Shown here in pieces: positions 6,451-61,515 of a DNA stretch of 64,000 nucleotides. This stretch comes from Tubiluchus corallicola (lineage: Eukaryota; Animalia; Priapulida). The position numbers were made by a program, and so were the translations under genes. The notes beneath the pieces are model-generated. The model was given only the letters and a program-made list of their open reading frames with translations. It made no database searches and was not told the DNA's origin. Numbering within the stretch: the first letter of the stretch is position 1; the number at the start of each line of letters is the position of its first letter. The stretch lies in assembly GCA_030141605.1 (NCBI GenBank), contig JAQGDQ010000052.1, positions 620,001 to 684,000 of the forward strand, in the 5' to 3' direction.

Positions 6451-6857
6451 CATTTTCAGCTGACATTATAAAGAAATCACAATGTCCAAAAAACAATGCA
6501 AGGTGCTGTTATTGTTTTTCAGAACAAATTAAAGGTTTATATTTCAATGTAACAGCTTTTAGAAAAGCCTGCTTGGGCTAATTTTAAAGCTTTAGTTAGC
6601 ATAGTGATATATGTCTAAATGCACATGTTTTTAAATTTCGGGACAGTTTTTAAGGTTTGTCAAATAACTACACAAATGAGCGTAATCTTAAGATGAGTGG
6701 AGACACGTGTTCCTAAAACTAAACCTAGCAGAAAATTTATCCGTGTTAGTATCTCATTAAACCTCCAAAGTACGAAAAGCTGTAAAAAGTTTTTTTCACC
6801 ACACCCTACTGTAAATTGTTAACTGTATATGCTATATATAGCAACAGAAGTTAGTAC

Positions 6858-37700: not shown

Positions 37701-40700
37701 TTGCATTTATATATATGTAGTGCAACTAGTTTTAAAATGTAGAATATGTAGTGGAAGCACTAGTCTATGTAGTAGCAGTTGGAAAAGAAATTAACATTAA
37801 AATATAGTCTATCATTTTTTATTTTTTGCACACATTACACACGGTGACATCTATTAAAATCGATACTACGAATATATATATTTGTCAACCAACCTTCATT
37901 TTAACGATAAGCTGGTGCAGCGTGTTACTCATAGATAGACAGATATTAGCAATCACCCAACGTTACTAGGTCAGGAAGTTCACTCACGTCAAACATATTG
38001 CACACTAGGTGGGCATGACTTACAGTGTACAGCTTGACTGCAAGAGCAGATACTCATATACATATATATATATGTATATATATATATAGGTAGGTGAAGT
38101 GAGGCATTTTTACCAACAGGTGGCGCTAGCATACAGCATTTATTGTAGAGCGAGGAATTTGTTTTGCAAGCCAAAATTACATAAATCATTTTCTCGCGTA
38201 GATGGCGCTAACATACAGCGTGTTAGTAGACAAGCTTTTGCTCCCATACATATCTACATGTAAAAGATCTATTGTAGAGTGAAGAATTTGTTTTACAAAC
38301 GAAAATTATATAAATCATTTTCTCCCGTAGATGGCGCTGGCCTACAGCATGTTAGTAGATACGCTTTTGCTCCCACACATCTACTTGTAAAACATTTATC
38401 AGTGAGAGAACAATAATAAATGGTTGTAATTCAGAAAAGAAATAATAAGCAACATCAAATTAAATTTGAAAGGGGAGTTCACCTCCAGGGAGAGGATAAC
38501 CCCCCAGGGGAAGCAAGTGAGACCTTACATGTGGGTTATATTGCACCAAGCGAGAGTATTGAGACATACGACTTGCACGGTGTTGCCACCATGCTTAAAT
38601 TTGTTGTCATCGCCATCAGCATCACTGCCGGTGTGGTTTGTAGCGATCATCATTATCATCATCATCGTCACGGCTGTCGCCAATGGAAAATAAATGTTTC
38701 ATCAATACCATTTCTCTGTCTAGAAAAAATGGTTGGAAATTTACACACCAGCTGCTGCAGGGAGTCGTAATATTGTCGTATGCAGCAAAACCGCAAAACG
38801 TATGCTCCGCAAGTAAGTAGGATGGGTGATTGTAGTGCTTTTGTCTTGAAAGTCCATGATGCTGACGCCGTTGATGCTAGTCACCAACCTCTTTCTGTAA
38901 TTCGCTCGATGCACAAAAAGGTGCCATTTTTTGTTTATTAGTTATTATCAGTGCTATGTCGGTCTAATTAAAGTGTAGATTCAAAAGCATGTGGCCCCAG
39001 TGAAAGTTCATCACAAACCCGTGTCATCACAAACGTACACCTCCAAGCTTTTTATCTCACTCTTATTAACTTTGCGATAGTAGATGTGTCGAAATTCTCG
39101 CATGACCATGTCGCCGTGCTCTGGCTCGATGGTTACTGCTCGCAAGAGGGGTACGGAAGTGTAACCCACGGGGAAGTGCCCGATGCAGTCTAGATAGATG
39201 TACAGCGTCTGTTGACCTCTGTTCACTTTGCAGGGGTGTGGGGATTCGTATTCGCCTATGGTGAGCAGCACAGAAGGTATATTCCAGAAACCCATCATGT
39301 CAGGTTTGACCGGTAAGACCAGGGTGGAAAGATCTCCCTTAACCATCAACTGGGAGTGCCTAGATATGGGGTAGAAGGAGACACTGAAGGAGAAGGCACA
39401 CTTCTTCGCCATTGTGATCGGATATGCGATAAGTGGGTGGCCAGCCACCTTCGGACACTGCACTAACCGTGAACAGTTCTTCCGTCCAGTTGGGAAAGTA
39501 GGACTTTTTGAATCGTCCCTTGACTTTGGAAAGATGCACTAAATTGCTCACTGCTAATTTTGGAGGCACTCTTAAATCTTTTTTTCTTCGCCTCCTTCCT
39601 TCACCATACAATCTTCTCCTCAAAAGCATCCGTACACCAGATCTTGGAGAAAATCGATCCATCTCAGGGTGTTGCAATGAGTGTAAACTTTGTAGCACCT
39701 AGATTTTAAAGTTCCGTTAAAATGTTCCACCAAAGCCACCTTGTAGACACTTTCCTTGGTGAAAGAATGTACGCCATAGTCTTTCAGCAATTTTTGCACA
39801 TGTCTATTTTGAAATTCTCTACCCTTGTCGGTGTGCAATTTGAGTGTTACCCGTCCCTTCTCCTCGGATATGGTGCGTAGAGTCTCGGCAGTTTCGCATC
39901 CACCTTTACTTTTCAACGCTCTCGCCCAAGCATAGCGACTGAAACAATCCACCACTGTTAACATGCATTTGTAGCTATCATTATAATTGGATAGTGTGTC
40001 CATAATTACCAGATCGGCTTGCCATTGATAATCGATTCCAAGAGTCAAAGTTGGGCAGGTGGCATATTTACTGTGTCTGGCATCCTTGTGGAGGGTATAA
40101 GTGGGTTGTGCACTCAACCATTCGTGGACACGACGCATCATGTCACCAGTGGCATGTTTCAAAGCACGCACTGCCATAACCGGCCGGATGACGCAAATCG
40201 TAATAGATCTCACCTAATCTTCTGCCCCTAGTCTCACCCATTCTCTAGCTCTGGACGAGAATTGCCATCGCCGCCGCTGTTGTTCCTGCTGCTGTTGAGG
40301 CAGTAGTTTTCCAGTGGTTCGTTTATTAGAAGGTGGTGGCGGTGACGTCGTTTCGATATCGGCTACTAGGCGTCAATGTGCCAGAGACGATGGGGGCACT
40401 GCCACTCCCAGCCTTTCGCGCTACTCTTGCTGCTGATGCCCCCTCTCTAAATTTGTCTTAGCCGTTTTACCCAACAGAGCCATAGTTACACTTATTTCTT
40501 TCAGATGACGAAAAGTCGGACCATCCACGGGGCGGAGACATCTTCTCGCTAGTTGTGGCATATTTTATCAAGTCCACCAGGTGTGTGCCACTCACTGCTC
40601 GTCCCTCATGCACGAAACGCCCCATTTCGTCCCAACGTGTTCAATGGGCCTTCAAAAAGGAGAGAATTTTTTGACCCCTGCTCTTGTACTTGGCGGGTAA

Positions 40701-43700
40701 TGCCTCGATTATGTGAGTGTCTTTCAGTCGGGTTCCGGTAGCACCGCCATCTTCTTTGCCCGTAGAGGAGATCGTTTTCATATATTTGATCTCCTCATTT
40801 CACTTCTCATCTTATTTTTCACATCGGGTGGTAAACCTCGAACGGACAATTAGGCCATTTTCTGTTGAATTTCCACAGTTTTCTGCTTGGCAGGCGTGTC
40901 TAGAATGATGCGCGCATGTTTTAACCTGTTATACTCCGCCAATGGTAGTAAAAACATCTGAGAATACATTTTCTGTTTCTTTCTTTTTTATCGCGGAATG
41001 TCTTGACCATCCTGGCCACGCTGGCGGCAACAGAAGTGGCACCAAATATGCCGGCCAAGAGGGGTATGATTGGAAATATTCCACCTTTTTGCATTAACGC
41101 ACGTCTTCTGGCCTTCAGTGTGGAACCGGCACGTGCCAATTTTGCGATGATCCCTTAATGCCTTTACCTGTTTGGGTTTCAACTTTACATTACCACGTAG
41201 TATGTTGAGAGCGCATCTGCTAAAAAATTAATTGCATCGGCATCGGCCCACTTTAACATCTCTCTCCTATCTTGAGGTTTGGCAGAAGCCAGTTGCTTGA
41301 GAAAAGGCTTGTGACGTCTAATACGAGCTTGTGCCATTTTTACCGCTGCTATTGGTTAGATGACTCATGCAGCATGCGTCATTTTGGTTATCTCATTTTT
41401 GGGGAAGAAAAACCAATTGTGGTGCTTCGTGCGGAAATATGTTACTTCTCATGCGAGTGCCATCATTGGTTTCCTGACACAAGTCGAATAGCATGTAAGA
41501 AAAGGGTGCTGCAGTGGCACGCTCGAAAGCGTCCACAAAAGATTTCGATTTACCCGGATACATTTGTCTACCCAACACTTCCACCTGCATCTTGTCGCGT
41601 CGATTTTTGAATAACACCAAGTAGTGGGTGTTTATACTGCACGTTCTCGATTCTTTTCTCTGTTGAAAAGGATTCTGCGTGATGAAAACCACGAAACACA
41701 GTTTGTGGTGTACTAGCTTTGTGAACCAATCGGTCAGTCGCTTGGAAGTGGCTAGTTCCGTCATCATGTCGTCCACCTCCACCAGATCTCCCACAGGTAT
41801 TCCAACGTTTATGTCCTTGCAGTACTCCACTTCTCGCAATTCTTCGTGACATGAGGGTCGTGGGGGAGGTGTTTACGAAAGCCACAACACCCTGTCTGGT
41901 TTAGTGTCGAACAACACATTCCGATGGAGGACTAAATTTTTTACAAAAGTGGTTTTCCTGGCACGACTGGGTCTGGCCACCAACATAGTGCTACCAAATT
42001 TCAATCTCACATCGTAAATTTGATCAAATTTACGAATAATCAACGAATAAATTAATCGGCCTTCCTTTATATATGTTTATCAAAAAATAAATAAAAAAAT
42101 ATCACGCGGCTTACAGAAAAAAAAAACGGTTGCAGCACTTGGAAAAATATCTCCCTCCAGGCAATAATTAAGTTGTCATTAAAAAATAATCCCAGCCAAT
42201 AAAATTAAATCGTTGTTTATCGACAAACCGAGGACTCGTCATCGTTGCAAAATAAATCTAGACAATAATTAAATCGTCATTTATTAACAAAAGGGGATTT
42301 GATGACACGAGAAGAGAAGTGGTCGTGGAGAATTTAGTGATGCCCCCCCCGAGAGTCCCAGAAGATCTCCCTCATTGAGAAAGCAGGACGATTCCATTAT
42401 CCTCATCCCGAAGGGTGAGACGGGACGACTGGGGGTACCCAACCCCGCGGGCAGGGTCGTAATTCATCCCACCCCTCCAGCAGAATCGGTAGGACCAATT
42501 TAATCCCCTAATCACCTAAAAACAAAAGAAAATTAAGGCAATACAAAAAAATACGGACCAATGCATTTCACAGTGCGGGGGACATAATTGGGCAATTAAA
42601 GGAAATTAAATCACCCGAAAAAAGACATTACACACTACTATGATGGACGAAGGTGTAGTTGCTGCTTTTAAAGTGTGTTCTCTGTGCCGCACTTTTGACC
42701 AATTGATTGCTGAAACTGATGGTGAAGAAAAGCCGACTATTCGAAAGTACTGGCACGCGTACAACACTTTGCACTGTTTACAATACGTTAAAGAATGCAC
42801 AAATTTTTTATAAAAAACAAAAGAAAGAAAACGAGGAAGAGGAAAAAATGACTGAAGGAGAGAAGGCTATGTTTCATATTTAAAATTTAAGGTACAGAAA
42901 TATTTTGTTTTAACATTTTAGCATTGTAGCATTTTAATTAAAGAAACGCTGCAGAATTGTAAGCATAAAGCCATATAGTGCTTAATTCATGGGCCAAATG
43001 TTATTTATTTTTATCCTGTAAAAAAACAGAACCTTTTAAGACAGCCAGGCTTCAGTGGTTTTCGCCACCTTGCAAGCAACTGAACGTTTTTACATAGCCA
43101 AGCACTATCGATTTTTGCTCCTGGAATGCAACTGAATGCTCTTACATTGTTTCTAATGGAAAACAATGTTTCATTTTGCTACGTTTAACAACGCCTTTTG
43201 CCGGAACTCACTGTAGCAGCGAACGATATTTTGGCTCGCACTCATTAGTACAGGTTAATAGGGTTAAGCATTCTTTTACAAAAAGCAAATTCTAATCGAA
43301 TCATAATCGTTACTGTAAATCTCGAATCAGGTTGAATTTCGAGATTGCAAATCCAAGTCGAATTGTAGTTCAGTTTCGAAGATTATAGAATATTTTTTAG
43401 AATCGATTTTGAATCTCTAATAAAAAGCTGCCTCCCAAAAATCATGAAAATTACTTGACTTTATTCTGCAGTGAAAACACTAATGATTTGTTTTTTCTAA
43501 ATTTATGCACAGAAACCACAGCTAAACTGTGCTGGCTGCATGATATTTCAAACGTTTTAATAACAAACAACATACTTAGTCGATGGGCTGAATTATTAAA
43601 ATCCATACGTTTGAATCGAGTTTCAAACTAAAAAGCTCGATCGAATCGAATTGGCTATCATTAGCACGCTCACATAATTTTTGTTGCTTCTAGGTGTGTG

Positions 43701-46700: not shown

Positions 46701-48641
46701 TCGTATCGTCCCTTGTAATTTATAATTAGTGGGCACTATTATAGGAATGCTAACTTTTGGTTAAATCTCAAGCAGGGTGATTTAATAATTCCAGCAAAAC
46801 AAACACAACATTGTTTTCCTGCACTTCATGTATGAAGAAGCAGTAGCATAGCTTAATTATCTGCACACAGTCCATCATATTTGGTTGTGCGAGAAATCCA
46901 ATTTGGTTTGCACCACATCTCCTGTCCTGTAGCACTCTTTTGTCCAGTTAAAAGGCACTACTTTTCTATTGGCTGCATTGGCGCAGAACAGTCACTGATG
47001 AACTGTTTAAAACAATTTACAGGGCCTAAAAATGGACGTATGCCTTTAACTGTTGTAGATGGCGAAATTTGGCTCATAGCTTTCATTTTTTCCTCATCAA
47101 CTTTAGCTGCAAATGGCGTTAAAATATGCTCTAAAATTGGGCTTTAAAAACACGCATTTTGCTCTACATTTTAGGTTAGAAAATAAGTGAATGAAAATTT
47201 ACTAAAGGTCTTGCGGGTGTTTTACCTGTACGTCGTGTCTACTTGTTTTGTTTTTCTAAATACCTATTCTGCGCTCGTAAGTTCTTGATCTTGCTTGACC
47301 TATTAATGCCATTACTCAAAAATCATGCATCTGTTCTCCTTGCAAATTATAAACGGGTGTTAGGTCTGCCATTTGTACTACTGCTAATTAGTACATGATT
47401 GTATAGTGCATTTAATTAGTGCATTGTGTACTAGTAACTGCAAGGAGTAATTCACCACTTTTTGAAAGTGTAATTCCAATACCTCTACAATTTTGCTGCA
47501 ATAATTTTAGTATTTTGAGCCAACAGTTCATCACTGGAAGTACATTTTGAAAGTAATTTACATGCACAATTTTTATGTATATGTACAATGGGACATGCAT
47601 CAAAACAAGCATAGAAAAATAGTAATAAATTTGAAAATTTTCCAGCAAAATAAAAAAATAGAATGTACTATAAATTAAATGTTAACCTGGTGTTGAGCCA
47701 AATTCAAGTTGGGGATGGAACCTATATCCTCCAAAGAAAGGCTTTGCAAATTTTCTATAGGCTCAAGTCCTATTATTTGCTGTGAGGTGGCAACATCTGG
47801 ATTTTCCTTTATAGCCTGCTCAGTAGTGCTATTTTCCTTAAGCTGTAATATAAAATCTAAGATAAATTTTTATTGTCAAAATCTGATAAATTTTCTTTTT
47901 AGCTTACAATACATTGAAGATGCCAAATTTTGAGATTCAAAAAAATTTAGTAAACCATTTTTATGTTATTGTTTGCTATATCTTGCAAAAGATAATCCAC
48001 TTTAATTTATAACCTTAGTTTAATGCGCATAACGCAGGACTTCTTTGTACGATATGAATGAACACGTCTTTTTTATGCGATAAGCTCATTGCCATTGGCA
48101 TTGTATTAAGAAAGGTAAAAAGACTACGTGATGCTTGTGAATGGGAAAATTGGCAGAAATATCTTATGCAAGCTTGAATGCATATATATCTTCCTCATAG
48201 AGAGAAATAGCTGGCCTGAAGAATTATACCCAGAAGCAGTTTTTCCAGCAAACCTCGACTTAATTTCTGTTGCAAGTCAGCTATTCTGCTTGCTCGTGGT
48301 TTCTTTTTTTTAACTAATTAAAGAGTGATGCTCTTGCTCCACAAAGTCTAACCAAACAGTCCTAAAATACTGCCATGACAAATAAGAGCAGTGGAACAAA
48401 AAATGACAAAATTGCATATTTAGGACATGCTTTTAATTTTTTAATTTACTTTGGCCTTAAAAAATGGTAAATACCAAAACAGTAGTTCTGCATGTTGTCT
48501 ACCTTTTGTAAAATTGTGGCTCCAAGCACTTGGTCTTGCGTTCTTGGTAGTTGATTCGGAATTTGTTCAGGATTCTGCAGAAGTGTTACCTGGTCTGTCT
48601 TCTCTTTTTTAAGAGCCGTTACAATATGTCCTACCATTTGA
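6858..48641 (-). CDS. Multi-exon gene encoding a stereocilin/otoancorin/mesothelin-superfamily extracellular protein (5' and 3' ends not located)
   Basis: Exons 48503-48641, 47687-47842, 44911-45081, 31662-31777, 29624-29795, 27541-27734, 26049-26139, 25438-25660, 22380-22573, 16057-16218, 15182-15330, 13008-13147, 9706-9803 and 6858-7728 all have polypyrimidine-AG/GT boundaries and join with matching phases into one open frame. Motifs typical of the family: AFGELSTWDEITL, LTCLDI, IGHLVCGIDPEDI, LKSCDLEVL...LYGDVSEWTSSHVGQMGIVVGAL, FSPQQLSEF. Confidence 0.8.
9706..9803 (-). CDS. Exon of stereocilin-like gene (GALTEEEASKLPVDALNELKPTTAVVMSPETLR)
   Basis: ctag|GG...AGA|gtaagt; 98 nt, phase 1 to 0. 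Confidence 0.85.
10130..12570. repeat. Cluster of an interspersed non-coding repeat family with internal sub-repeats; homologous copy at 30480-31420
   Basis: Duplicated units (aacc(c)aaaatgtgaaaatt...caactcct x2; tagttgacaatgtttctgacgtgg x2; aatgaaatctcaact...cttgacccgtg...tctcactgag x2-3). 11740-12130 resembles 30950-31320 (cagagagtgtaccct...gcatgtaaaa...ttttgcatttt...cagggcta...gtgaccctagct...gttatta). Confidence 0.7.
13008..13147 (-). CDS. Exon of stereocilin-like gene (ATVVSFGLLKSCDLEVL...YGDVSEWTSSHVGQMGIVV)
   Basis: ttttag|...|gtatgt; 140 nt, phase 2 to 1; family-typical C...G.VS.W motif. Confidence 0.88.
15182..15330 (-). CDS. Exon of stereocilin-like gene (QQNLAEKV...IGHLVCGIDPEDIRNLVSPAVY)
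   Basis: ttacag|...|gtatat; 149 nt, phase 0 to 2. Confidence 0.88.
15555..15930 (+). repeat. Interspersed repeat with a second copy at about 28685-29140
   Basis: Shared blocks catgccaacaaaacaataaaga, gtcttcac, atgca.aggaactaaa.gcaaaa, ccaaatacc and gaaaatggt.gacaca in two different introns. Confidence 0.7.
16057..16218 (-). CDS. Exon of stereocilin-like gene (SNGGTVSNMTAALL...LGDLSELSQEV)
   Basis: ttacag|...|gtaagt; 162 nt, phase 0 to 0; inside ORF 15967..16257. Confidence 0.88.
16950..18480 (+). mobile_element. BEL/Pao gag remnant with probable 3' LTR
   Basis: LSSPEPGVFKYDPMAYCKWRVAFDALV...HYLSQYLGGSAKKTVEGLLLL...ARRLLDDMFGDP...LEILNDYNENRKLCSKL (DUF1759). Purine tract aaaggggggtgcgga at about 18236 precedes an AATAAA-containing LTR-like segment. 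Confidence 0.7.
18990..19835 (+). mobile_element. CR1/L2-type LINE 3' fragment
   Basis: PAYLCDLLP...YNLR...SFTSSCIKLW...CRVRL...SPVCSNC...ENRTHYLFYC, followed by a 3' UTR with AATAAA. Confidence 0.75.
22380..22573 (-). CDS. Exon of stereocilin-like gene (SEDVDETLQHNLTCLDI...LWEAVIK)
   Basis: ttatag|...|gttcgt; 194 nt, phase 1 to 0. Confidence 0.85.
22592..24310 (+). mobile_element. LINE RT fragment split by a ~0.7-kb non-coding insertion (22681-23399)
   Basis: GVRKEAVLSAILSTIYLDELLLRLHNYG stops at 22680 and resumes as YFADVLGYRDDLTVLVPSVKYLQKMLEICENYG...HLGH after 23400; atggag is repeated at both junctions. Confidence 0.7.
25438..25660 (-). CDS. Exon of stereocilin-like gene ending in GRKKR (furin-type site)
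   Basis: ttatag|...|gtaagc; 223 nt, phase 0 to 1. Confidence 0.85.
26049..26139 (-). CDS. Exon of stereocilin-like gene (ELSTWDEITLMKVRCLLFVFDRSQLNQIPK)
   Basis: tttcag|...|gtaagt; 91 nt, phase 2 to 0. Confidence 0.85.
26794..27313 (-). mobile_element. Candidate 5S-derived SINE (SINE3)
   Basis: The 5S head runs directly into a ~400-bp GC-richer body that ends in a short (AAC)n-like tail (GGATGCCAACAACAAA); flanks are AT-rich intron. Confidence 0.65.
27194..27313 (-). rRNA. 5S rRNA-derived sequence (pseudogene or SINE head)
   Basis: Reverse complement reads CTATGGCCATATCACGTTAAAAACACCGGTTCTTGTCTGATCGCCGAAGTTAAGCAACATAGAGCCTGGTTAGTACTTGGATGGGTGACCACCTAGGAATACCAGGTGCTGTAGGCTT: full-length 5S with the internal control region. 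Single copy, no T4 terminator. Confidence 0.9.
27541..27734 (-). CDS. Exon of stereocilin-like gene (DSPSPASITAEQFDALGQL...EKLIDAFG)
   Basis: gtatag|...|gtacgt; 194 nt, phase 0 to 2. Confidence 0.85.
29624..29795 (-). CDS. Exon of stereocilin-like gene (MARPFADD...LSNVLDCW)
   Basis: ttttag|...|gtgagt; 172 nt, phase 2 to 0. Confidence 0.85.
31662..31777 (-). CDS. Exon of stereocilin-like gene (RNCLASKMTDF...PNELLMK)
   Basis: ttttag|...|gtaagt; 116 nt, phase 0 to 2. Confidence 0.82.
35016..36380 (+). pseudogene. Maverick protein-primed DNA polymerase B remnant; N-terminal region joined to the extreme C-terminus, catalytic core deleted
   Basis: ISGFVISAVPFIEIQLSKYK...GGFCQLPRDLVDKRVLLNI...DAHCVKYAILGSL...IEFPT...HYLTISDLNRLL...HYCERC (pPolB N-terminal region), then directly RAKGVDRQAITHEITHEDF...KRSLSFFHDKR...SLPYGH (pPolB C-terminus). 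Several frameshifts. Confidence 0.85.
36750..37190 (+). repeat. Tandem and dispersed repeats inside the Maverick with a CCTC(T)CCAGGAT core
   Basis: ~34-bp unit cacctctccaggatgtaatttctcgcaaatttc at about 36967, 37083, 37117 and 37151; cgtgatctgca.ccaccctccaggatc at 36751 and 36860. Confidence 0.85.
38113..38385 (+). repeat. ~125-bp direct repeat in the Maverick carrying three CTCF-like motifs
   Basis: Copies at 38143-38256 and 38272-38384; motifs ccaacaggtggcgcta, gcgtagatggcgcta and cccgtagatggcgctg. Confidence 0.75.
38965..39330 (-). pseudogene. Maverick minor capsid (penton-like) protein, C-terminal half
   Basis: GQQTLYIYLDCIGHFPVGYTSVPLLRAV...FRHIYYRKV...LEVYVCDDTG, then a degenerate F.G...L.LHF terminus. 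Confidence 0.72.
39400..40213 (-). pseudogene. Maverick retroviral-like (rve, c-integrase) integrase
   Basis: WLSAQPTYTLHK...QWQADLV...LTVVDCFSRYAWA...LHTDKGREF...VEHFNGTLK, then after a frameshift RFKKSYFPNWTEELFTV...YRISDHNGEEV. Confidence 0.92.
40250..40915 (-). pseudogene. Conserved Maverick uncharacterised ORF upstream of integrase
   Basis: Manual translation ...IIEALPAKYKSRGQKILSF...RWDEMGRFVHEGRAVSGTHLVDLIKYA...PPRGWSDF resembles the orphan gene usually found next to Maverick integrase; disrupted. Confidence 0.6.
40921..41338 (-). pseudogene. Small basic Maverick core-like protein with MQKGG|IFP protease-cleavage-like motif
   Basis: MAQARIRRHKPFLKQL...CALNILRGNVKLKPKQVKALR...RRRALMQKGGIFPIIPLLAG; Arg/Lys-rich, followed by a hydrophobic tail; frameshifted. 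Confidence 0.7.
41393..42025 (-). pseudogene. Maverick packaging ATPase (A32/FtsK-like)
   Basis: YDVRLKFGSTMLVARPSRARKTTFVKNL (degenerate Walker A), VDDMM (Walker B), FITQNPF...RTCSINTHYLVLFKNRRDKMQ...GRQMYPG...RMRSNIFP. Confidence 0.9.
43259..43662. mobile_element. hAT-like MITE rich in TCGAAT repeats; related end at about 62285-62325
   Basis: Starts TAGGGTT; contains many (t)cgaat/attcga motifs; similar ttcgaattcgattcgaa...caaccccta at 62290. Confidence 0.45.
44336..44863. mobile_element. Non-autonomous TIR element (Kolobok-like MITE)
   Basis: ttaa|AGGAAGACCGGATGATTGTTTA ... TTTACATAATCATCCGGTTTTCCT|ttca: imperfect TIRs with a TTAA-like target site. Confidence 0.65.
44911..45081 (-). CDS. 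Exon of stereocilin-like gene (NTYFLRQVGVWDKVSIGKASPFLSGITCEFI...SPKT)
   Basis: ttgcag|...|gtaata; 171 nt, phase 0 to 0; inside ORF 44812..45147. Confidence 0.78.
46920..47135 (-). mobile_element. Gypsy RT/RNaseH-connection fragment
   Basis: ILEHILTPFAAKVDEEKMKAMSQISPSTTVKGIRPFLGPVNCFKQFISDCSAPMQP...PFNWTKEC. Confidence 0.7.
47687..47842 (-). CDS. Exon of stereocilin-like gene (LKENSTTEQAIKENP...LNLAQHQ)
   Basis: ttacag|...|gttaac; 156 nt, phase 0 to 0. Confidence 0.72.
48503..48641 (-). CDS. Probable exon of stereocilin-like gene (QMVGHIVTALKKE...GATILQK)
   Basis: ctacag|...|gtagac; 139 nt, phase 2 to 0, compatible with the next exon. Confidence 0.62.
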
Positions 48642-49229
48642 CTGTAGGACAAATCAAATGAAAGGCTAGCATTTAAATATTCAGAGCTTTTCAAAAAGTG
48701 TAAAGAAGGCCTTAGTATCATTTTACAGCAGACACATTAGCTTGTTATGCACACTACCCACATGCACGCACATACACACGCAAAATATTGGTACAATGTT
48801 GTGTCCTGCTTAGACACACCCTACATATTCTAAGGCAAATCAAACCAAAAGCAATAATTTTCCTGTACGTTCCAGAAAAATTACACCTGCAACTACAAAA
48901 TTTAGGACACAATTTTGTTTTTAATGTTTTATTTGAAAACATCTCTCTTACGTTTGAAGTATGATCATTTTGTGTATAGCGAAAAATAAATTCCTCTTTA
49001 ACCTTACTTCATCATTACATTACTCTCTCAGCTGATATTGTTTTTATTTAGTTAAAATAATGATTCTCTATTCAAACCTATGCAGATGCACAGTCCAAAA
49101 TCATACAGTACTCTTCAGTTAACACTAAGTCTGCATTACTGTGAGACTGAATAAGTGGATTTAGTAACCTTTTGAAATTATAAATGTAAGAGTAACACTA
49201 GGGTATGTAACATACTATGTTACAAACTA

Positions 49230-52200
49230 TGCTGCACATTGTTCCAAGCGAGGAATGGTAATGATTTTCATTGATGCTAACCTTAACTTTATCAGTACGG
49301 AAGATGTATTAATGTTTTTGAAAGTCATCTTCCCAGCAAATATATGTGACTGCATCATATGCTGTGTGAGATGGTGTGGAAATAACTTTCCCAAAATTGG
49401 TTGGAATAATACAACGATCCAGGTAGAAATCTTCCAACAGAAGACGACATTCACTTTTTCACTTCAATCATCGACAATCACTTTTCACACTTGGTTCCAG
49501 GTTAGCATCCTTGGCTTCCTTGTATTTCTACATTTTTCTTCGAAGATTTTCAAAATAATAGCTTGCCTTTTACTACTATGGATTGACCATTCCCATGGGA
49601 GCATAGATTTGACCTACTGAACTTAGAGCAAGCTGGGTATGTAGTTTTGTTTTATACTTGCCAAAATTTGTCAATTTTTATTTCATATTTCATTTCCAGT
49701 GCTCTCTCATCAGGCAACAAATCACAGTCTAATTTAGGTTTTTTACAGCTTTTCCTCTGTGCTATATAAGAACAGTGCCTATTACTCTTCAATCAGTGTT
49801 CATCCACTTATTTACAAAAAAATCCACAGCTGGCTCAAAGTTTACGTAATTGCTGGATGAATTCTCTGGCTTTATCTACTGTATCAACAGACTTGAAGCA
49901 TTGCAGAAATGCAGAAATTGTTAAATGTGATGTTCACTACTTCTTAATTAAAATATCCGGCATTGTCAAGTGCCAACCTCTTAACTGTAAATGAAGTCAT
50001 TCTAAACGTTTGCAAAGGTTGAATCTACCTCTCCATTTGACCACCACAAAAAAACGAAGTAATGTTCAATCAAGCTTTTGGGTGCCACAAACACTTGATT
50101 AAACATTTTGAAAATGTCTGCCATCAAAGCCAGTGGCTTCTGCCTAAAACAAAGCGAAGGCTGATAAACCTGTTCGTGAGATCTTGGCCTTGCAATATAA
50201 CTGAATTAAGTGATTCTCACTTGCAGGTGGCTGCACAATCAAATACTGGTCGTGTTTTTCCAGGCTTATTCTCATTGAATACCGGAAAGTGTGGCAAATA
50301 CCATATCATGAGTCCACTCACCTCATCACATTCTTCATTGACTGCCTCAGCATATTTCTTATGCAATAAATCATCCATGGCATCAACATAATTAGTGTGC
50401 AGCAGAGGATTTTTACCAAATCTTGCTTTAACCCATTCATCTGTTGAAGTGCCTATTGGACAAATCATCATGCATACGTTTCACTGTAATTTACAATTCA
50501 TAATGTCCATCGCAATGCGTTATTGAGTTTTCCCAAATACCAGTAGCTCTCATATAGTCATGTGACATTTATATTTCATCCGGATTAGCTTTGAATATCC
50601 AGAATTTTTCCACTTGTTTATAGAGTAAGCCTTCTTGATTAACTGACTGATTCACATGTAGGTTGTAATTGTGACTCACCACTGTTTGCACTCCCCCTAT
50701 AGGCTCATGTAATGACCTAATCAATCTTGTTTTAGCAATCTGTATTCATTGGCCCACTTTGAACTTCAAGGGAAATAAGTGTGTCTGTAACATCGTGTCT
50801 TATCAATAAGCCGAGCTCTAGATCTTATTTTGTCTTGCAGTCAACCAAGTGCAACTCCAGTCCCTTTAAACTGTCCTAATTTTCACTGTTCCACAAAGTA
50901 GCTAGACCTTGAGCATCTAACATCGATGCTGGTCTAATGAACACACAGAATATTGCATTATATCCTATGACATCAGTGACAGTAAAGCTTGTTCTCAGAG
51001 AATCATACAGCACCTGGGAACAAAATGTATTAATGGAGCAGGGATCTTAAAGTGCTAGCATTGTAACTGGACTTCTTCCCTCAACCTGGACTTGTACAAC
51101 TACCACCGGAAGCACCATCTTTTTGGCTTCTTTACTGTCTATGTTTTTGTCTTTATTTCCGCGTCAACTTGATTAAATTTGTTCTCTTCTCAGAAAACAA
51201 TCCAGCTATTCAAGGCATTCTGCAGCAAACTGGAATGTTTACGCCCACACTCACTGATATCGCATCCACGTTTGCGGCAAAATGCAGCCGTATGACACCT
51301 TTTAATAAGGTAATTGAATCACAATTCAGTGGTAACTTCAGTCTTTCTTCTCCCAAGCCATTAAATTGATTACATTGAGAGGCCAAACAATTATCACGTG
51401 AATTATAAAAAAGGCAAAATTTTTCCAATGACTTCGCTTCATTTTGCATTCTTTAGCAGCCAGATTATGCACACCATTACATGCCCTGTTTGTAGCCTCA
51501 CCAGCATTACCAAGGTTTGGAGTTTTTGCCAAGGTGGCTCTTGGCCGTGTTACCCCGCCTTCCCCTACTTTCACACGTCTCCAAAGTCTAGATGGTTTAC
51601 ATGGTCTGCTTGTAAGGGTTCTTGCTGGTTTAACAATTTTCCTTACAACATCTCTTCAGTTTTTTTAAATCTATATAGCAGTTTTCTGACTATTTGAACA
51701 AGACTGGCTTGAGTATTAATTTCGCATAAATTATTCATAGATGTAAGAGCTTCTAAAAAGCCAAAGATAAGTCTGAAAATTCCCAAAGTTCTTCAAGTTT
51801 ATGGGCTTTAATGAAGTGCCAATCATTAATCTTTTTAGCCATGCCTGCATTACTAGGAATGGACTGCCAAAATGCTCCCTCAGTAACTCTTTAGTCTGTA
51901 TAGATGCTACAGCTGGGTCCATGTAATAACAGCTATCTACTACAATTTATGCCCTTCTAGTGCATCACTGAAGCAGCCTCGGATATCTAGCAGCATCTTC
52001 GTGCATATAGTTCTCAACTCAAGCTTCAAACCTTCTTAAGAATCTCCAAAAATTTAAAACATCCCCGTAAAATATTTCCAATTCAAAAATAGGTAATTGC
52101 GTTGCATTGTACATTCGAAGGTGTTGGCACTGACTTTACATCGTGATGTCCATTACAGAATGTAAGTCATCGCTATTTCTTTGACATTTCGGTGGCAAAA

Positions 52201-53684
52201 ATTTCTGAGCTTGAGCATAAAGCTGAGGGCCTATGTTTATGTTACCATGTTGTATACCTGAAGCGCGAGCAACTTGATTTTGCAGCTCTTTTTGTTGCAA
52301 AATTTTAAGTTGTACCTCCATAAAAATTTGCCACCAGTCGTTTAGAATTTCCAATCCAAACTCACACATTACAGGAGTAGTATGCATCATATTTCTGCCA
52401 TTTGAATTCTGAATACAAACCCACGGTTTGCGAGTGCCATGGAAATGAGTAATTTTTACCTGCAGAGGAAAATTCTCAACTCCATGGATTCCTGTATAGT
52501 ACCTGTAGGGGAAATGTTTGCAAAATGTAAAATACAAGTTTAAACGTCCTTGGTCGCTACTGTCGCACACATGGGCCTCCTCTGCACTAACGAATGCAGT
52601 TTGGTATAGGCGCTAAAACTTGGGTGAAAATTGCCATTGAACGAATCTGGCCATCCTATGTCTGGGACTGCGGATAATTCATCCCTGTTAAATAGCTCAT
52701 CAGTGTTTTCCAAAAAAAACAAAAGTGTCAGCATCCAAAAACACACATTTGTTGAACTGTATTAGTCGTCAAAAGTGCAATTTAGTGAAAGTCACTTTTA
52801 ACTCCGGTCGCCTTAATAACTCCAGTTGTGTACAAATTCAATATAATCAGATATGTTGCATATTAGTTTAAAAAATATGTCAGAAATGTCTGTGGTAATT
52901 ATAGCTACCAAGCTTCTAGCAGTTCCAATTTGCCATAGATGGTATGCCAAAACAAGCGCTCCTATTGGATATTTATCATTAGTCGCCAATGTAATGTCTT
53001 TTAAAGACTGCTTCGGTTCCACTGCTGATGTCATTCCTTGAGCCATGTCAGAACTGTGAATCCATTCAGTATCCTTATTTGGGATGGACTGCACTTCGGT
53101 GGGTTTTTTAACTTTCTCTGAGACTGAACTAACTGGTGCCACATTTTGAGTCACATTCATACTCCAAATGCAGTTGTTTGATCTTCATTGTTTCTAATTT
53201 CAATGTTTTGCTTTTTAATTTTTAATTCATTTAGCCACACCTTAGAAGACGTAATACTCACTGATTGATTACTTAGTTTAGGTTTCTTGTCCGAGGTTCC
53301 TCTTGCGATGCTGTTGTGTGACGACAATTTATCACCCAGGCCTCCATTGGGAACTTTGACCGAGTGTTCCTTTCCATATAGTTTGTCATCTTTTTGGAAC
53401 TCTCTGCTGGAATGTGCTGATTCCGTAACTCCCAGCCTCTTTACTAATCTCGCTTTCAGGCCAGCAGCAGATAAACCTCTATCAATGCTAAATCTGTTTT
53501 AACACCTGAATGGTCTTTTCCTCTAAAATGGTTTCCATAAACAATTCAGTCACTAACCAGGATGCATCAATTATATTGGCTGCTTGTTTGCTGGTTGGCT
53601 TCACTGATTGATTCCAGCATACACGTTGCCGTTGTGGATAGGTTTGAAAACTGGTCAGCGTTTCATATCTGTATTTTCACCAAG
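49230..53684 (-). mobile_element. Degenerate BEL/Pao LTR retrotransposon
   Basis: DUF1759 Gag (LPIFELEIFYGDVLNFWRFLRRFE...LREHFGSP), protease-region VLPVVVVQVQ...LAL*DPCS, RT WYLPHFPVFNENKPGKTRPVFDCAA...LRFRQKPLALMADIFKMFNQV, and a weak C-terminal integrase-tail remnant near 49.3-49.6 kb. Putative LTR end and PBS-like junction ggacaCTTGGTG at about 53684. Confidence 0.88.
52320..52995 (-). pseudogene. GYG1: Intronless glycogenin (GT8) catalytic domain embedded in the BEL gag ORF
   Basis: ITLATNDKYPIGALVLA...RPELKVTFTKLHF*RLIQFNKCVFLDADT...NTDELFNRDELSAVPDIGWPDSFN...DSSDQGRLNLYF...KHFPY...HFHGTRKPW...WWQIF, collinear with animal glycogenin. Contains frameshifts and a stop. Confidence 0.93.
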
Positions 53685-56600
53685 TGTCCGAAAGAAGCAT
53701 ATTAAACTGTTGCATCTATAAACTAACATAAATAAAAACTCTTAAATTGACTTTTAACGTTTAATATGTGATTTCTCTCCAACGTATATGTGACGGTTTG
53801 TGGGAATAAACTAATATATTATAATTGATCTAGGGTAATTTAGTATCAAAGTCTCAAATTTAAATTTACTTACATGTCAGGGTAATTATTTCTACTAATT
53901 TCATCACCAAGCGTTTGGGTTCATGTTGGGGCAATTCTCCTATAGGACTCGATTATTTTAGTAAATATAATCATTGAGTTGTTAATCGTAAAATGTTTTC
54001 ACAAACTTTGAAATAGAACTAATAAACACCTGGACACACAAATTATACAGTATATTGTTGAACGAGAACAAGGCAAAGAACAATTGTACTTATGGGAGAA
54101 AATAATACCTACTGGGCCCAGATTTAACAAGTAGCAAGGAGTATACTCATGTTTATACGTAGTTCCTGATGGCCGGCTCTTCCAGGATGCACCAAGGACG
54201 GTTCACAGTCCCAAATCCACGAACCTCTACTGGAATAAGTAGGATTCTCCACTATGTTGCCGATCTATGAGTTCTGACGCTCCACAAGGAGTTTAACCTG
54301 GAATCGTAGTCGTATCTCTGCGTCTCCTCTACCGCCGAATAGCGTAACCAGGAGGTTGCGGACTCCACCACTATGTAAACACTCCACCAATGTTCCGAAA
54401 GTTTCAGAATCTCTCACAGGGTGGGTTATCCAAGAGCTCCTCTAAGTGAAGAAGTATGACGAGGTAATTACCTCACTCCTGAGTCGTGCTGGTGCTATGC
54501 AAAGGTTGTCGATACAACATTGTGAATTTAACTATTGTCTCTCACAAAACATCACCTCGTCATTGAGGCCAAAATAAAACTCATAGACAAAACGTGTCTC
54601 AAACATATGACGAACAGAAGAAAGGTACCAACTATGTCGAGCAGGTAAAAACGGCCTGGATAGACATCCGTTCAACACAAAATTCGGTACCTGAATGAAG
54701 TCGGCAAACATTAGCCTAGATAGAATGACCTTGTATATAATGCATAATATCCAATGGCTTCTATACTGTTCAAAATCTTATAGTGATGAATGGCCCTGTA
54801 TATCGGCCAGTTAGCTAGCGGTCATGCATCGCATGGCCGTGGCAGTATATTTTATAGATCTATCATTGCTCAGCATCTGGTATTAACTGCCTACCTATTG
54901 CTTAGTTAAATTTAGTTTAACTATTTCGGGCATGTGGCACCACAGTACTGTAGTGTTTAATTGTGATAAAATTAATAAAGTCAAAATCCTCAACACAGGG
55001 GTACAAACTGTAATACAATTTTGATTTTCCAGTACAATATGGTTTCAAGTACCCTCAACCAAAAATCGACCAAAATCGGAATTGGTACTTTTGAGGTAAC
55101 GTACCTAAGTTACTCCTAAACAATCAAGCCTAGATAAGAAATATGTATTACTGACCGAACAAAAGGGACAAGACAGGATTCCAAAAAATGGTCATTTTTC
55201 ATCTATGATATCATAATAAATAATATTGCTACAGCACTGTGTGCCAGTCAAGGTGGTGACCAACTTCATCAATGTAGTGGTTGACTATTAATTGAACATG
55301 ACTCTGACCTGTTGTCCTTATGTTCACCTCTACTATCAAGAACTTTTTATCGATCTCTATTTAGCAGACAATGTTGAGACCTTCGCGCCAAAAGATTGCC
55401 ATGGTCAACTACCAATAGAACTTTGCAGAACTCTCTCCTCTGCTGGATTGGGATCCTGAGAATATGGATGCAGTCTGTGGTGGAATGTCATGGAGTAAAT
55501 CCAGCTTGTTTAGATACAGTAATCAGGTACGAGATTAGATGAGATGAGTATGAGAACCTTTGTTTTTTTCAAAAATGAGGAGGTGAAGCCATATTTCCAG
55601 TTGATAAAAATATGCAGAGTGAGAAGACCATATCAATCTGCAGAAGAATAAATCAACTGGACACTGGAATACATCTTATAATATCAAACAGTCAATAACT
55701 CCAAAGACAGTCAATATCAGTTAAAAGCAGACTTCATATGTAACATATGATCAGTGTTGAGATTGTCCTCTCCAATCATTTGGTTTAAGTCGCATTCATT
55801 GCTCAATATTGAGCCCGTACAAATGATGACTGGAGTATTTAGTTGCAATGCTAAAATAGAGACTTGCACTGAAATGACGCCTGCGTGTGGCTTTTCGGAC
55901 TTTTTTGTTTACTTATAGATGATGCAAGTCTTCCTTCCGACTGCTACAAAGACACGTAACGCCCTTTTTCTGCCTCAGCTAATTGTTGCTAATTCGCATT
56001 AGGTTCTACAAAAAATAGCCCAGTGTCATCTAGCTTATTGAAAGTTACAGCTAGCTTCCAGATAGTGCCAAACAGATGTGATACCTAATCACAACAAATA
56101 ATTGCTTGAATGAACAGTATCGGATCAGCCACCCTGTCACCCAAGTGTCCTCTAATATTAAAATGTCCCATTGAATCTTTGCACAGCAGAATATAATTGT
56201 GTCTGCAGAGATATATCATACACCAACTCGTCCCACCTGCTCGAATGTGATCAACTGTACTGTCAAGTCAGTGGAAATAATGTGAATGAAAATGAATGGA
56301 TATCAATATGTAAGTGACATTGAAAGTCATTGTAATTGATATTTATTAAGTACTGATATAAAAAAGTTCCAGTTCCCATTTTCGACAACAACAAATCAGT
56401 GATATTCTTAAATACATCATAATAGTATTGAAGTCACAATGACATCATAGGTGAAAAATGACAACATTTTTGGAATCCTCTGGTGCATTTTCCTATCAAT
56501 CAGTAATACATAATTTTCACCTGAGCTCAGTGGTTTAATCGTTTAAGAGATATAACAGATTTTTAGCTCCTTCAGGAATCGTCTTGAATTTATGCATATA

Positions 56601-57499
56601 TCTCAAAAGTACCAAACTCAATTTTGGCTGATTTTTATTGATGGTACTAAAGCCACATTCTTATAGAATCCATTGAGAAATATTCTGTTACAATTTGTTC
56701 TAGAGTACTTGTTATCTGCCTATTAGAAGAAATCAACGAAGAATGTGTCCAAGTGTCTGGCGCGCAAACTGCTGTGACCAAGTTGCCTGTTCCTTAGCTA
56801 ACATCTCTTCGCTGATCATAAATTTCCTTGCAACAATGGATATGCCGAGAACTATGCCAGTATGGCATATCTTGAAGCAAAGTGTTTTTTACCCAATTAG
56901 TATCGTAAGCATTCAACCAAACAATTGTCATTCAAAGTCTACAGTACAGCTTGTGTACAACTAGCCATGTAATTAGCTGAATTAGGCTTCCTTTGTGTGC
57001 GTGTGTATAATAACTTTTCTGTGCCAAAGTCTAGCTAGATAGCCAGATGTCACATAGCGCTGACAATTGCTATGTTTCTCCCTTGATCCATTCATTATTG
57101 AGGATGACCATGAGGACGATAATTTAGTATGACTAAAGTCTATCCGTATTGCACTTAATGTATAACGTATTGGTGTGCGTGCGTGCAACCGTGACCGTGT
57201 CTTGTGTTGTTAACAAGCTCTGCAGATTTTGCTAATTTTATAAAGTAATTTTATGTTTAACATGATAAAAGTGATACCATTTTGTGTGTAAATATCTACA
57301 GAAGAAGAAGGTAATAAACGTTTGCACTTATACAGTTGGATTTAGATATTAAAAGTGAAAAATTGTTGAAATTCTTCAAGTTCTATTGCAAATCGACAAT
57401 TCATGGTCACCGTACCTAGTTGAGGCTATTGTGTCATTGATTAGACCTTAATTGGTCTATTCACCTGTCAACAAGAACATTCAGGTAGATAGCAACGCA

Positions 57500-60400
57500 A
57501 ACTGGTCCTACAATGGGAGAAAGGAAAAGCTGCGCTCTATGTAGATATGAGGATACATATATTTGGATACGTTGCATGCTGCAGATGAGTGAGAACATTT
57601 CTTTTATTGTTTTTACAAAGTACTTTTGCTAATTTTTGCTTTTGAAAACTTTGAAGGTATAATAGACTGGTTACCATTTGCAACGTATTTCCCATATACC
57701 TGCATATACTAAGGTCACGCTGAAATAATATAGAAATAGACTGGTTCACTTCCCCTATTTCTGATACCTGCATTATTTGTTGAATATGTCTGACAAACCG
57801 AAGAGTATCGATGAGCTGTGTGCATGTGACCGTAAGAAGCTGAAAGCCATTACGAAGGACGATATGATAGAAATCATACTGGCTGCCCCCCCTTCGGCCG
57901 CTTCTGGTGGTGCCGATTCAGCTGTGTTGAAACGCCTGGATGAACTATCTAATAATATTAACACTAAATTTCAAAATCTGGAGGAAAAATTGTCCCAAAA
58001 GATTGAAGACAAACATTCTGAATTAAAGACTGAAGTGAATGTCTTGCGTCAAGTTGTTAAAAATCAACAACGGTTTTTGGAGCAGGTTGACGGTCGTCTC
58101 CGAAACCAGAACTTAATTATGATGGGCTTAAGTGAAAATGAGGATATCGATGGTGCTAATTCCGACGATGATAAGATAAGGAAAATTCTTGATGTAGTGG
58201 ATGTGGAAGCTGCTGTCGTCTCATACAAGAGACTCGGTACAGCTACGAATGGCCGTGATCGTCCTGTGTTGGTCATTGTTGAAAATCATGACCAAAGGGA
58301 CAATGTCGTGAAGAATGCTAATAAGCTTCAATCGTCTGCCAATGCTGCTGTGAAAAAAGTCAGAGTGAAGCGAGACACCCACCCTGCAGTTCGTGCCGAA
58401 TGGAAGCGGCTATTTGACGCTGAGAAGTGCGAACGTGACAAACCTGAAAACCGGGGATGCCATATTGAGTTTGACAAGAAAAAGCGTAAGATCACCCGGG
58501 ACGGTGTTGTTATTGATAGTTGGCAACCAATGTCTTTTTTGTAAACAATCGAGATAGTTGCACTGAACTCCGTATTACACATTGGAACATTAATGCTGTG
58601 AAAAATAAACTGGAGATCGACTTTGTTCGCCAAAGTTTATGTAAATCTGATATGATATTCTTAAATGAAATCAAAACTCCGTTGAAGTTCACAATGCCTG
58701 GGTATAAAACTCTCCGAACTAATCAAGCAGCTGGTCACCGTGGTGGTTGTGCTATACTGATTTCAAATGTGCTAGCCTCTTCGATTCAATCGGTCGAATT
58801 TGGTTCCGATGTTATTGTGCTACGCCTCAATAATATACCTGCTATTGTTTTTGTATGTGTTTATCTCACGCCATCTGACTCTCATTACCACTCACTTGAA
58901 TGCTTAGCAAAAATCAACGAAGTTATGATGTCCAACCCTCATGATCAATTTGTGATACTTGGTGATTTGAATGCCCGTTACGGGCCTGCTATTAACAAAT
59001 TTTTACGTAATGTTAGTGACAGTGGTGCATGATATCTTGCTTCCGAGGATTCGATTGGATCCCCGAATGAAAATGCCAAAGTTGTTTATAATTCTTTTAA
59101 CTCTTTAATCGTTGTAAATAACATTCAGTATAAAGGCAGAACATTTAAAAGTAATCTAACGTATAGAAAACGTGAGAATTGGATTTCTGAATTAGACTAT
59201 TGTCTTATTTCTCCTGCACTAATCGATAGTGTTGTCAATTTCACTGTCAATCAAGACTTATGATTACCTTCGAATCATGCCCCTCTGTCTGTGATTTTTG
59301 ATATCAACATGTTATCTCGTGGACCCTTACCTCACAATCTTCTTATCAGATCCGAAGCCTTAGGTGCTCATGCAGCTGAAGTTAAAACTCCAAACCGCAA
59401 ACATTGTAGCCGTCAGATCCGTATTGCTGAAACAGACTGTGTCGAATTTCAGAGAGTGATGTCTTCAGTTGAACCTCCTGATGATGTGGATGATGTAAAT
59501 AGTTGTGTTACTGATATTAATAATGTTTTCCGTGACAAACTGATTAGATGTAAAGCTCCGAATCGTCTCATCAATCGTTATCAGCCGACGGATCGTTGGC
59601 GCCGTATGCTCGAGCTCAATGATTCTAAGGAAATATGGAATGCCACAGACTGGAAAGGAAACACGATTGAATCTGAATCCTTTGAATCTCCAACTAGCGA
59701 AGAATTCAAACGTCATTTCGAGGATCTTCTCAACCCAGATCGTGATGGTCCAGAGGACTTATTATCACTGTGCGATGGTCCAAGTATCCTGTGTTTTGTT
59801 CTGAATTTCATATTCTTTTCGCGATCTTTCCCAATTCCGTGGTGCTTTAGCCGCCTTGTTACTATTTTTAAGAGAGGATCTCGTAAGGACTGCGATAATT
59901 ACCGCGGTTTGTCAATCATGGATTCCCTTGCGAAAATATACGATCGAATTTTGTGCAAACGTTGAGAGATGTGGTTCAAACCCGATAGGGAGCAGGCTGG
60001 CGCCCAAAAGGGTAGATCCTGCATTGAGTGGATTGTGACTCTAAGACTATTAATGGACTATGTACTGTTTAAAAAGAGGAAATTATATATCGTTTTCGTA
60101 GACTTCTCGAAAGCTTACGATAGAGTTCCACGTTCTGGTTTGATTAGGGCCTTGAGAGCTCTTGGCTGTGGTCTTGTGATGCTTTCTGCTCTTGCTGCCA
60201 TGTATGTGAATACGCAGCTGGTCCTTGGTGCTGCCGTTATTGGTGTTACATTAGGTGTGAAGCAGGGTTCTCCGTCATCCTGTTTCCTCTTCACACTGTA
60301 TATTAACCCTCTTATTCGTGAATTAAAGTCTAGATGTGGTCTCGATGGTTTCCTAGGAAATTTACACTGTTTGATGTTGATGGATGATACAATCTTATTG

Positions 60401-60860
60401 TCAACATCTAGAGAAGGTATTATTCAAAAACTCAGTATCCTTATTGAGTTCTGTGATCAATCCGGTATGAAGGTGAACTTAAAAAAGACTAAATTTATGG
60501 TTATTAATGGCGATGCTGTTGATCGTCTGGACCTCGTAGTGAACCCCCTTACTGTTAATCACTGTGACTATTACGTTTACCTCGGTGCTGTCTTTAGCTC
60601 AATAGGAAAATTTAAACCCGCTCTGGAAAAACACTGCGAAGACAAATATTGTCACGTACTGAAGTTCGTGTCATTTATTTCTAAGAATTCAGCTTATCCT
60701 TTTGCAGTTAAGAAGTTAGTTTTAAATGCCGCGCTACTTGCTGCAATTACTTACGGATGTGAGTCTTGGCTATGCAATGTCCTTAATCCTATTCAAGGGA
60801 TGTATATTAGTGTTATTAAATGTTTACTCGGTGTGCGACGTACAACTGCTATAATAGGTA
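57500..60860 (+). mobile_element. Near-full-length LINE: ORF1 plus disrupted APE-RT ORF2, 3'-truncated
   Basis: ORF1 57777-58544 (coiled coil, RNQNLIMMGLSE, RLG...RPVLV). APE domain (HWNINAV, FLNEIK, ILGDLNAR, SELDYCL, SNHAPL). RT (NYRGLSI, EQAGAQKGRSC, FVDFSKAYDRV, GVKQGSPSS, LMDD). Stop at about 59030, frameshift at about 59966. 5' boundary approximate. Confidence 0.9.
57777..58544 (+). CDS. LINE ORF1 nucleic-acid-binding protein (intact frame)
   Basis: 255-aa ORF with a coiled coil and RRM-like motifs, overlapping the ORF2 start. Confidence 0.8.
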   Translation: MLNMSDKPKSIDELCACDRKKLKAITKDDMIEIILAAPPSAASGGADSAVLKRLDELSNNINTKFQNLEEKLSQKIEDKHSELKTEVNVLRQVVKNQQRFLEQVDGRLRNQNLIMMGLSENEDIDGANSDDDKIRKILDVVDVEAAVVSYKRLGTATNGRDRPVLVIVENHDQRDNVVKNANKLQSSANAAVKKVRVKRDTHPAVRAEWKRLFDAEKCERDKPENRGCHIEFDKKKRKITRDGVVIDSWQPMSFL

Positions 60861-61515
60861 AAATGTTGATTGCCAACGCAATTTTATATTTTCTTTGCTG
60901 ATTAAAGAATTATCTACACCTATCTGATGGTTTAACTCAGGGACGTTAAACGAATTTACTCAAATGTAACTTAACTATATACGATGTGATACAATTTCCA
61001 ACAGACTCCTTTATACACTTTGGTACTGATGCGCGGATATTAACTACACTGTACTGTATATTTAATGTAACTTTCCCGGTCATGTGCACCTCGTATAGAT
61101 AAATGTTTTTACTGTAGTAATATGTTTATCGATCGCAGCTTAGTTATTTATGAATCATTATGATAAACAAATTTGTGTTCCGTAACTAGCAGCCATCTAT
61201 GTATACAGTACTGAATGCACTGAATCACTTAATAATTTTAATTCTTAAGGATACTTTTTCTTTTATTGCATAAATTGTGTATGTCCAGTGTCGTTTTTGT
61301 GAATCAAAATAATTTATCGTATTGTATTGTGTCGTCTGTTGGAAATTGTATCACATCGTATAGTTGTCATATCAGTAAATTCGTTTAACGTCCCTGAGTT
61401 AAACCATCAGATAGGTGTAGATAATTCTTTAATCAGCAAAGAAAATATAAAATTGGTGTTGAAAATCAACATTTTACCTATTAATATTTGACAGTATTCC
61501 ATTTGTTTAATTCAG

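Follow-up and report, generated by a model that had tools for sequence, protein, structure and literature searches.

The window, by which we mean the whole 64,000-nucleotide stretch of DNA analysed, contains a decayed BEL/Pao element of about 4.3 kb on the minus strand, extending from about 53540 to 49220. Its domains, all read on that strand, occur in the order SAP, linker, glycogenin GT8, linker, DUF1759, protease, reverse transcriptase (RT) and RNase H. At the N-terminus of Gag is a SAP-like domain (53440..53538), broken by a frameshift and weakly matching Pfam SAP (E 0.026). It is followed by a Ser-rich, coiled-coil-like linker (52996..53439; ORFs 53157-53498 and 52813-53184) made up of two overlapping stop-free frames, the second of which continues into GT8. 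As judged by eye this linker resembles those of SAP-bearing relatives, and a tblastn comparison of the relatives' N-termini with the N-terminal region of the window gave no usable match. The GT8 catalytic domain, which is derived from glycogenin, occupies 52290..52995 (its end lying at ~52290). The first-pass annotation had described a SAP-glycogenin-Gag arrangement beginning at the 5′ start of the element. The order is as proposed and GT8 is upstream of DUF1759, but GT8 lies inside the Gag N-terminal region and not at the 5′ start, and the SAP domain, besides being weak and broken, is native to some BEL Gags, being present in four of the 150 best Gag relatives.

To the 3′ side of GT8 is an in-frame Gag linker (52118..52289) interrupted by one stop at 52136, as defined by six-frame reading and by motif spacing in relatives. 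A likely LNPxAxEFxP-type motif, recognised by eye, lies ~42 residues before the LP motif of DUF1759, within the 34-58 residues that separate the two in eight relatives. The DUF1759 capsid-region domain itself (51679..52117) contains three stops and two frameshifts; homology searches with relatives place it at about 52170-51680. Pfam applied directly to the window makes no DUF1759 call in the decayed Gag. A HMMER search with 51731-52612 returned 788 matches; the best 150 all fall on the Gag part and 116 of them carry PF03564 (DUF1759), the long ones among these also having Peptidase_A17, RT and integrase domains. The DUF1759 label of the window is a transitive assignment, made through the PF03564 of its relatives. 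Further along the element are a decayed Cys/His knuckle region (51220..51440; an unscored by-eye reading against P0007, which together with P0014 is the nearest full-length relative), an aspartic-protease-like region (50740..51121), and a heavily broken RT and RNase H / Peptidase_A17 region (49224..50538), the last two located by searches with relatives. Protease, RT and RNase H stand in order and match Peptidase_A17-bearing relatives. Searches with the full-length relatives found no integrase after RNase H, and BEL homology stops at ~49224.

There is no direct repeat pair around the element. A solo LTR-like high-copy repeat beginning TG and ending CA (53789..54844, without strand assignment), identified by contig depth and repeat comparison, was considered as the LTR of the element and rejected because it has its own GTATA target duplication on both sides and is present at 30-45 times single-copy depth; it is a separate insertion. 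We read the missing paired LTRs as a loss, and with no LTR pair, no integrase and a separate neighbouring repeat, the element is a truncated BEL/Pao remnant of ~4.3 kb. Given three frameshifts and a stop in GT8, and three more stops and two frameshifts in DUF1759, the window copy is, as had been proposed, a dead BEL/Pao retrotransposon, with a glycogenin catalytic domain in frame in its Gag.

The glycogenin domain and its junctions with Gag

All of the GT8 motifs listed in the first-pass annotation are found on the minus strand, spread over two frames in a six-frame reading, and include the DxD, DQG and HFxGxxKPW motifs of glycogenin. Two frames of 52290-52999 match solved glycogenins with E values of 2.6e-17 and 1.4e-16 and jointly cover residues ~7-263. 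A frameshift-aware alignment, with X at the breaks, gives 47-48% identity to mollusc glycogenins (Mya P0162 and Liolophura P0163) and places 24 deleted and 3-4 inserted codons in the domain along with its frameshifts and stop. With so few inserted codons there is no intron-sized insert, and the description of the domain as intronless holds. The 5′ end is complete and the 3′ end of glycogenin is missing; the glycogen-synthase-binding tail motif is absent from all three frames of 51001-52400. The boundaries of GT8 coincide with the catalytic domain of glycogenin, the only portion that the first-pass annotation considered to be retained. Nor is a poly(A)-like stretch present close to the 3′ junction, again as that annotation stated in arguing against an independent retrocopy.

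The junctions are in frame on both sides. Downstream, ORFs 52136-52612 and 51731-51946 share one frame, such that the stop at 52136 is the only one between the end of GT8 and the start of DUF1759, as noted originally; upstream, GT8 is in frame with 60 linker codons (ORF 52813-53184). The 241 N-terminal codons outside GT8 contain one stop compared with 15.3 expected from the flank (P 2.4e-6, an optimistic value, as the frames tested had been picked as ORFs). The distance from SAP to the LP motif of DUF1759 is ~481 codons in the window and ~246 codons without GT8, and the LP motif is at residue 198-244 in three SAP-bearing relatives. On this basis GT8 would seem to have been placed within the flexible N-terminal portion of Gag, as an addition to an N-terminus of normal length and not in exchange for part of it; the comparison is an indirect one, made with three relatives in place of a GT8-free parent.

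These features bear on two alternative origins. One is that GT8 is a LINE-made processed pseudogene, a single chance insertion in an already dead element. It would account for a GT8 without an intron-sized insert, but processed copies of this type are poorly reconciled with a complete 5′ end, a missing 3′ end, no poly(A) and in-frame junctions on both sides; it is also contradicted by the GT8 pieces present at other loci (see below), and we regard it as very improbable. The other is a passive LTR-mediated retrocopy, in which a template switch placed part of a glycogenin mRNA, perhaps from a divergent host paralog, in the element, which then spread as a non-autonomous passenger without use for the domain. 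The accessible part of Tan et al. 2016 (PMC5131818) describes how LTR elements, BEL elements included, copy parts of host mRNAs by template switching, without poly(A) or target-site duplications (TSDs), and then spread. The element-flanked, 3′-truncated retrocopies described there, one of them in a mosquito BEL element, keep retrotransposing, and they resemble the window in that element sequence flanks an incomplete mRNA on both sides, poly(A) and TSD are lacking, and additional copies exist. However, the Drosophila cases in that part of the report replaced part of the element ORF, whereas here GT8 is added with Gag length preserved, is in frame at both ends, matches the boundaries of a catalytic domain, and is old, with a constraint-type pattern of divergence. 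We consider the passive origin rather unlikely, with further evidence on both sides of it given in the next section.

Sister copies, probable constraint and relatives

Contigs of four public sequencing runs were aligned to 47000-56000 at 80% likeness; X1 and X2 are from one sample, which may be the source of the window, X3 is from another study, and X5 is almost without element sequence. The comparison rests on 30 of 925 pieces and 40 of 431 differences, with copy structure partly inferred from depth. Depth in X1 is 185.6 over 47602-49106, corresponding to single copy, but reaches 556 over 52719-53019 and 504 over 53020-53320; the SAP region, at a depth of 208.5, is unmatched by sister copies at 80%. 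Segmental duplication was considered as a source of the additional copies, and is argued against by the single-copy left flank. One contig, present in X1, X2 and X3 at single-copy depth, covers 52952-53158, which takes in linker and ~40 nt from the start of GT8, and resumes at 51833 in mid-DUF1759. Its first piece is six letters shorter in total, so the frame is kept, and its DUF1759 differs at 24 of 174 letters; the junction gaps recur in a second X1 contig. The region of the KPW motif is covered by two contigs, which differ from the window at 52417 and 52419; in one contig 52542 is joined to 53211, and in another 76 of the 444 letters over 51717-52160 are different. In our reading these represent some three additional, dispersed loci at which GT8 was formerly present, and its occurrence in the window is consequently not a one-copy accident. 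Two visible sister copies have lost much of GT8, as a passenger might be expected to do, and all of those visible among the 30 of 925 pieces are fragments or deletion derivatives, none being intact.

In each run one further contig matches the window over 52718-52760 alone; beyond this stretch, to either side, its sequence looks like that of an ordinary glycogenin. Roughly a third of its 60 flanking letters differ from the window, in a by-eye count that is biased high by loose ends. This contig is probably the host gene, and is farther from the window than the sister copies are. None of the marks by which the first-pass annotation would have recognised a chance retrocopy, namely occurrence in a single copy, a poly(A) or TSD, and near-identity to host mRNA, is seen here.

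Using 74 host glycogenins as the reference, the divergence of GT8 shows a pattern with several aspects. First, 56 of 79 invariant residues are kept in GT8 compared to 68 of 101 in DUF1759, protease and RT together (Fisher p 0.63), and GT8 is therefore no more eroded than the element core; a passenger reading does not lead one to expect its invariants to have fared as well as those of RT. Secondly, at variable sites GT8 matches only 12 of 88 positions, and its variable-to-invariant ratio is 0.19. None of the 74 host glycogenins goes that low (minimum 0.24), and neither does any of 66 simulations (minimum 0.26) that let host mRNAs decay neutrally, gave them comparable indels and put them through the identical realignment. 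Neutral decay of a host-like sequence thus gives the observed site pattern in none of the 66, which also argues against a passenger. Thirdly, in a tree of 45 rows (loci after L040 left out) GT8 is a very long, unplaced branch, of length 2.78 compared to a median of 0.16. The site pattern has the signature that long constrained evolution, followed by death, would leave. The same pattern would arise if a divergent host paralog was captured, and evolution in the element or in the host before capture would both fit. We think it probable that the family carried GT8 as a translated, constrained protein.

Losses within GT8 are unevenly distributed. Of the 56 invariants in the N-terminal half and the last HFxGxxKPW-WW segment, 47 are intact, including 9 of 9 in the final segment; the middle segment retains 13 of its 28 and has six deleted columns besides. 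The segment boundaries were chosen after inspection; once this is corrected for by scanning, clustering as strong as that observed occurs in 9 of 491 simulations, giving modest support for the clustering of losses in the middle segment. The retained motifs serve nucleotide-sugar and metal binding, and the changed segment contains the acceptor loop. Glycogenin is a dimer, and part of the dimer contact falls in the remodelled middle segment. Both observations bear on the alternative that GT8 was kept as a non-catalytic module, for example a scaffold for Gag dimerisation or a sugar or glycogen-granule handle steering particles in the germ cell. The dimeric state of glycogenin and the acceptor-side loops, which lost 15 of 28 invariants together with the six columns, are what such a module could have; but the best-kept motifs (DxD, PD, DQG and HFxGxxKPW) are the sugar- and metal-binding ones, and the segment that contributes to the dimer is the one that changed. 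This makes a non-catalytic module improbable in our estimation. The acceptor tyrosine of glycogenin is Tyr195, according to the accessible part of PMC7046021; in the window a Tyr aligns at this site under one gap placement, the seven preceding residues are missing and the following residues differ. The acceptor-side loops of GT8 look remodelled, being shortened and diverged.

Fused relatives were sought elsewhere. GT8 is present in none of the nearest Gag relatives (0 of the best 150 of 788), and two word-based protein searches for the junction found fused proteins among neither 402 candidates of 516-2000 aa nor 613 of 753-2398 aa; a third gave 16 of 726 candidates at 232-741 aa, none of them fused and each a regular glycogenin. 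A DNA pattern for the junction, with one 30-nt spacing window, had no metagenome matches; BEL homology was not found at 80 of 303 metagenome glycogenin loci; and two scans of viral contigs gave no fused locus either. Because the query is decayed and the collections are poor in animal repeat DNA, these blanks carry little weight. The want of relatives in other species (in protein searches and the best 150 of 788 HMMER matches) speaks for a passenger. The SAP-GT8-Gag family is known from one organism. Occurrence of the fusion beyond a single copy, which the first-pass annotation anticipated, is seen, in pieces, at about three other loci, but in the collections searched not in other organisms. 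Its proposal of an active ancestral family with a Gag-fused GT8 agrees with the constraint-type divergence and the several loci, but finds no intact copy among the visible pieces.

A putative Gag-tethered sugar transferase and related captures

Because diverged sisters share parts of GT8, the ancestor, when active, is likely to have produced a fusion protein, putatively a sugar-transferring one. A bolder reading, to which we give a probability of roughly one in three, is that a BEL/Pao family domesticated the glycogenin of a host as a glycosyltransferase joined to Gag, gave it a new acceptor, and used it to glycosylate the cytoplasmic particle of the element itself or a protein of host defence. 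In the reading we favour and hold probable, reverse transcriptase would have switched to a glycogenin mRNA packaged alongside the element RNA and then returned, leaving the catalytic domain within a flexible stretch of Gag. Throughout, the polyprotein would have stayed open while GT8 drifted at variable sites and kept its donor and metal motifs, and the domain was likely under selection during the spread of the family. We suggest only tentatively that the domain was active as a transferase and that its acceptor had changed. The C-terminal tail of glycogenin binds glycogen synthase, and with this docking tail gone GT8 would not recruit the synthase or prime glycogen in the usual way. The prediction is of a Gag-tethered UDP-sugar transferase whose acceptor differs from that in glycogen synthesis; given remodelled acceptor loops, the sugar would most likely be added to neighbouring Gag or to a bound host protein, possibly shielding the particle or blunting host defence. 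A tethered transferase acting on Gag or a host protein is, we infer, the simplest functional reading. If true, such a cytosolic enzyme would suggest a part for glycosylation or glycogen granules in element-host conflict, and would provide a natural example of glycogenin switching acceptor and of a retroelement bringing its own sugar-transfer enzyme. A passenger origin would still make this a clear and old example of in-frame LTR-mediated exon capture.

The element shares with Belpaoviridae a DUF1759 Gag, protease, RT and RNase H in the usual order, with an N-terminal SAP in the four relatives noted above; it differs in the glycogenin domain of its Gag, present in none of those 150, and this copy is without integrase and LTR. 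The Belpaoviridae profile (PMC8742986) mentions env as the only extra gene, as does the accessible part of a BEL/Pao survey (PMC3118150), whose sequence supplements could hold elements with a GT8. Compared with animal glycogenins GYG1/GYG2 (PDB 1ll2, 3t7m and 4ueg), GT8 retains the whole catalytic domain with donor and metal motifs, but lacks the tail, has shortened and diverged acceptor loops and a very long branch, and is embedded in Gag.

GT8 seems to behave like other accessory-domain captures by LTR elements. The accessible parts of the respective reports describe AlkB in orchid Gypsy elements (PMC9289625), GDSL/DEDDy ORF3 in bdelloid LTR elements (PMC5408684), many extra domains in planarian Burro (PMC6431247) and SF1 helicase in insect LTR elements (PMC6338049). 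As in the window, each has a foreign enzyme domain in an LTR element family; these are nucleic-acid, lipid, or ubiquitin/apoptosis-related domains, with RNA-modifying, nuclease, esterase or helicase functions among them, mostly in Gypsy elements and often in separate ORFs, and no glycosyltransferase is mentioned in those parts. According to the accessible part of PMC9289625, LTR retrotransposons are considered to acquire an additional enzyme for good only rarely, and where they do it tends to be a sign of some host pressure to which the element had to respond. Within the literature covered, mostly at the level of titles and abstracts and outside Repbase, Dfam and subscription papers, no glycogenin or glycosyltransferase domain was found in LTR retrotransposons. 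GT8 is likely a new accessory domain of an LTR retrotransposon family, with a putative enzymatic role; what is likely new is a glycogenin catalytic domain in an LTR retrotransposon Gag, as the capture route and accessory enzymes in LTR elements are already known. A changed GT8 acceptor may have a precedent in the UDP-galactose:glucoside-Skp1 galactosyltransferase, presumably a cellular enzyme of protists. This glycogenin-related GT8 protein (PDB 6mw5) by its name acts on the glycan of another protein, and it matches the window weakly (E 0.0026); it is a stand-alone enzyme, far less similar to the window than glycogenin is.

A second glycogenin sequence and BEL-type Gag pieces

In contigs of three public runs (X1 and X2 from one sample, X3 from another study) a distinct glycogenin sequence is present at loose ends, where contig sequence runs on past its match to the window, and this match is confined to 52718–52760. 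The sequence continues for about 100 nt without an intron in all three runs; it is probably the host gene and possibly another copy of the element. An N-terminal SAP domain is carried by four of the best 150 of 788 HMMER relatives of the Gag part, the BEL Gag proteins P0049, P0061, P0073 and P0099; the main text of the BEL/Pao survey (PMC3118150) makes no mention of SAP. A short DUF1759-like fragment, the second in the window, lies at 17054–17200 (+) and is matched by about 20 relatives.

LTR-like and inverted repeats

A solo LTR-like repeat of 1056 nt (53789–54844) has TG...CA ends, is flanked by a perfect GTATA duplication, and has a depth 30–45 times single-copy in contigs of the public runs. 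It is surrounded by a second multi-copy repeat, with loose ends at 53741 and 55095. Two short inverted matches of about 80% (55048–55214 and 56439–56648) probably represent one DNA repeat in two copies, and a MITE-like inverted repeat pair with 88 nt arms (98%) is located at 60879–61455.

Other elements and a probable host exon

Reading by eye suggests a LINE-like element at 57765–60901 (+), with a 259 aa ORF1-like ORF followed by endonuclease and RT ORFs containing a few stops, and additional LINE RT fragments at 4714–5923 (+). Polinton/Maverick-like fragments occupy 35300–41900, including an rve integrase (39620–40213; Pfam, E 4.4e-14), near which ATPase-like and polymerase-like ORFs were noted, also by eye. 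The ORF at 6832–7734 (−), encoding 300 aa that are acidic and Thr/Ser-rich, is likely a host exon.
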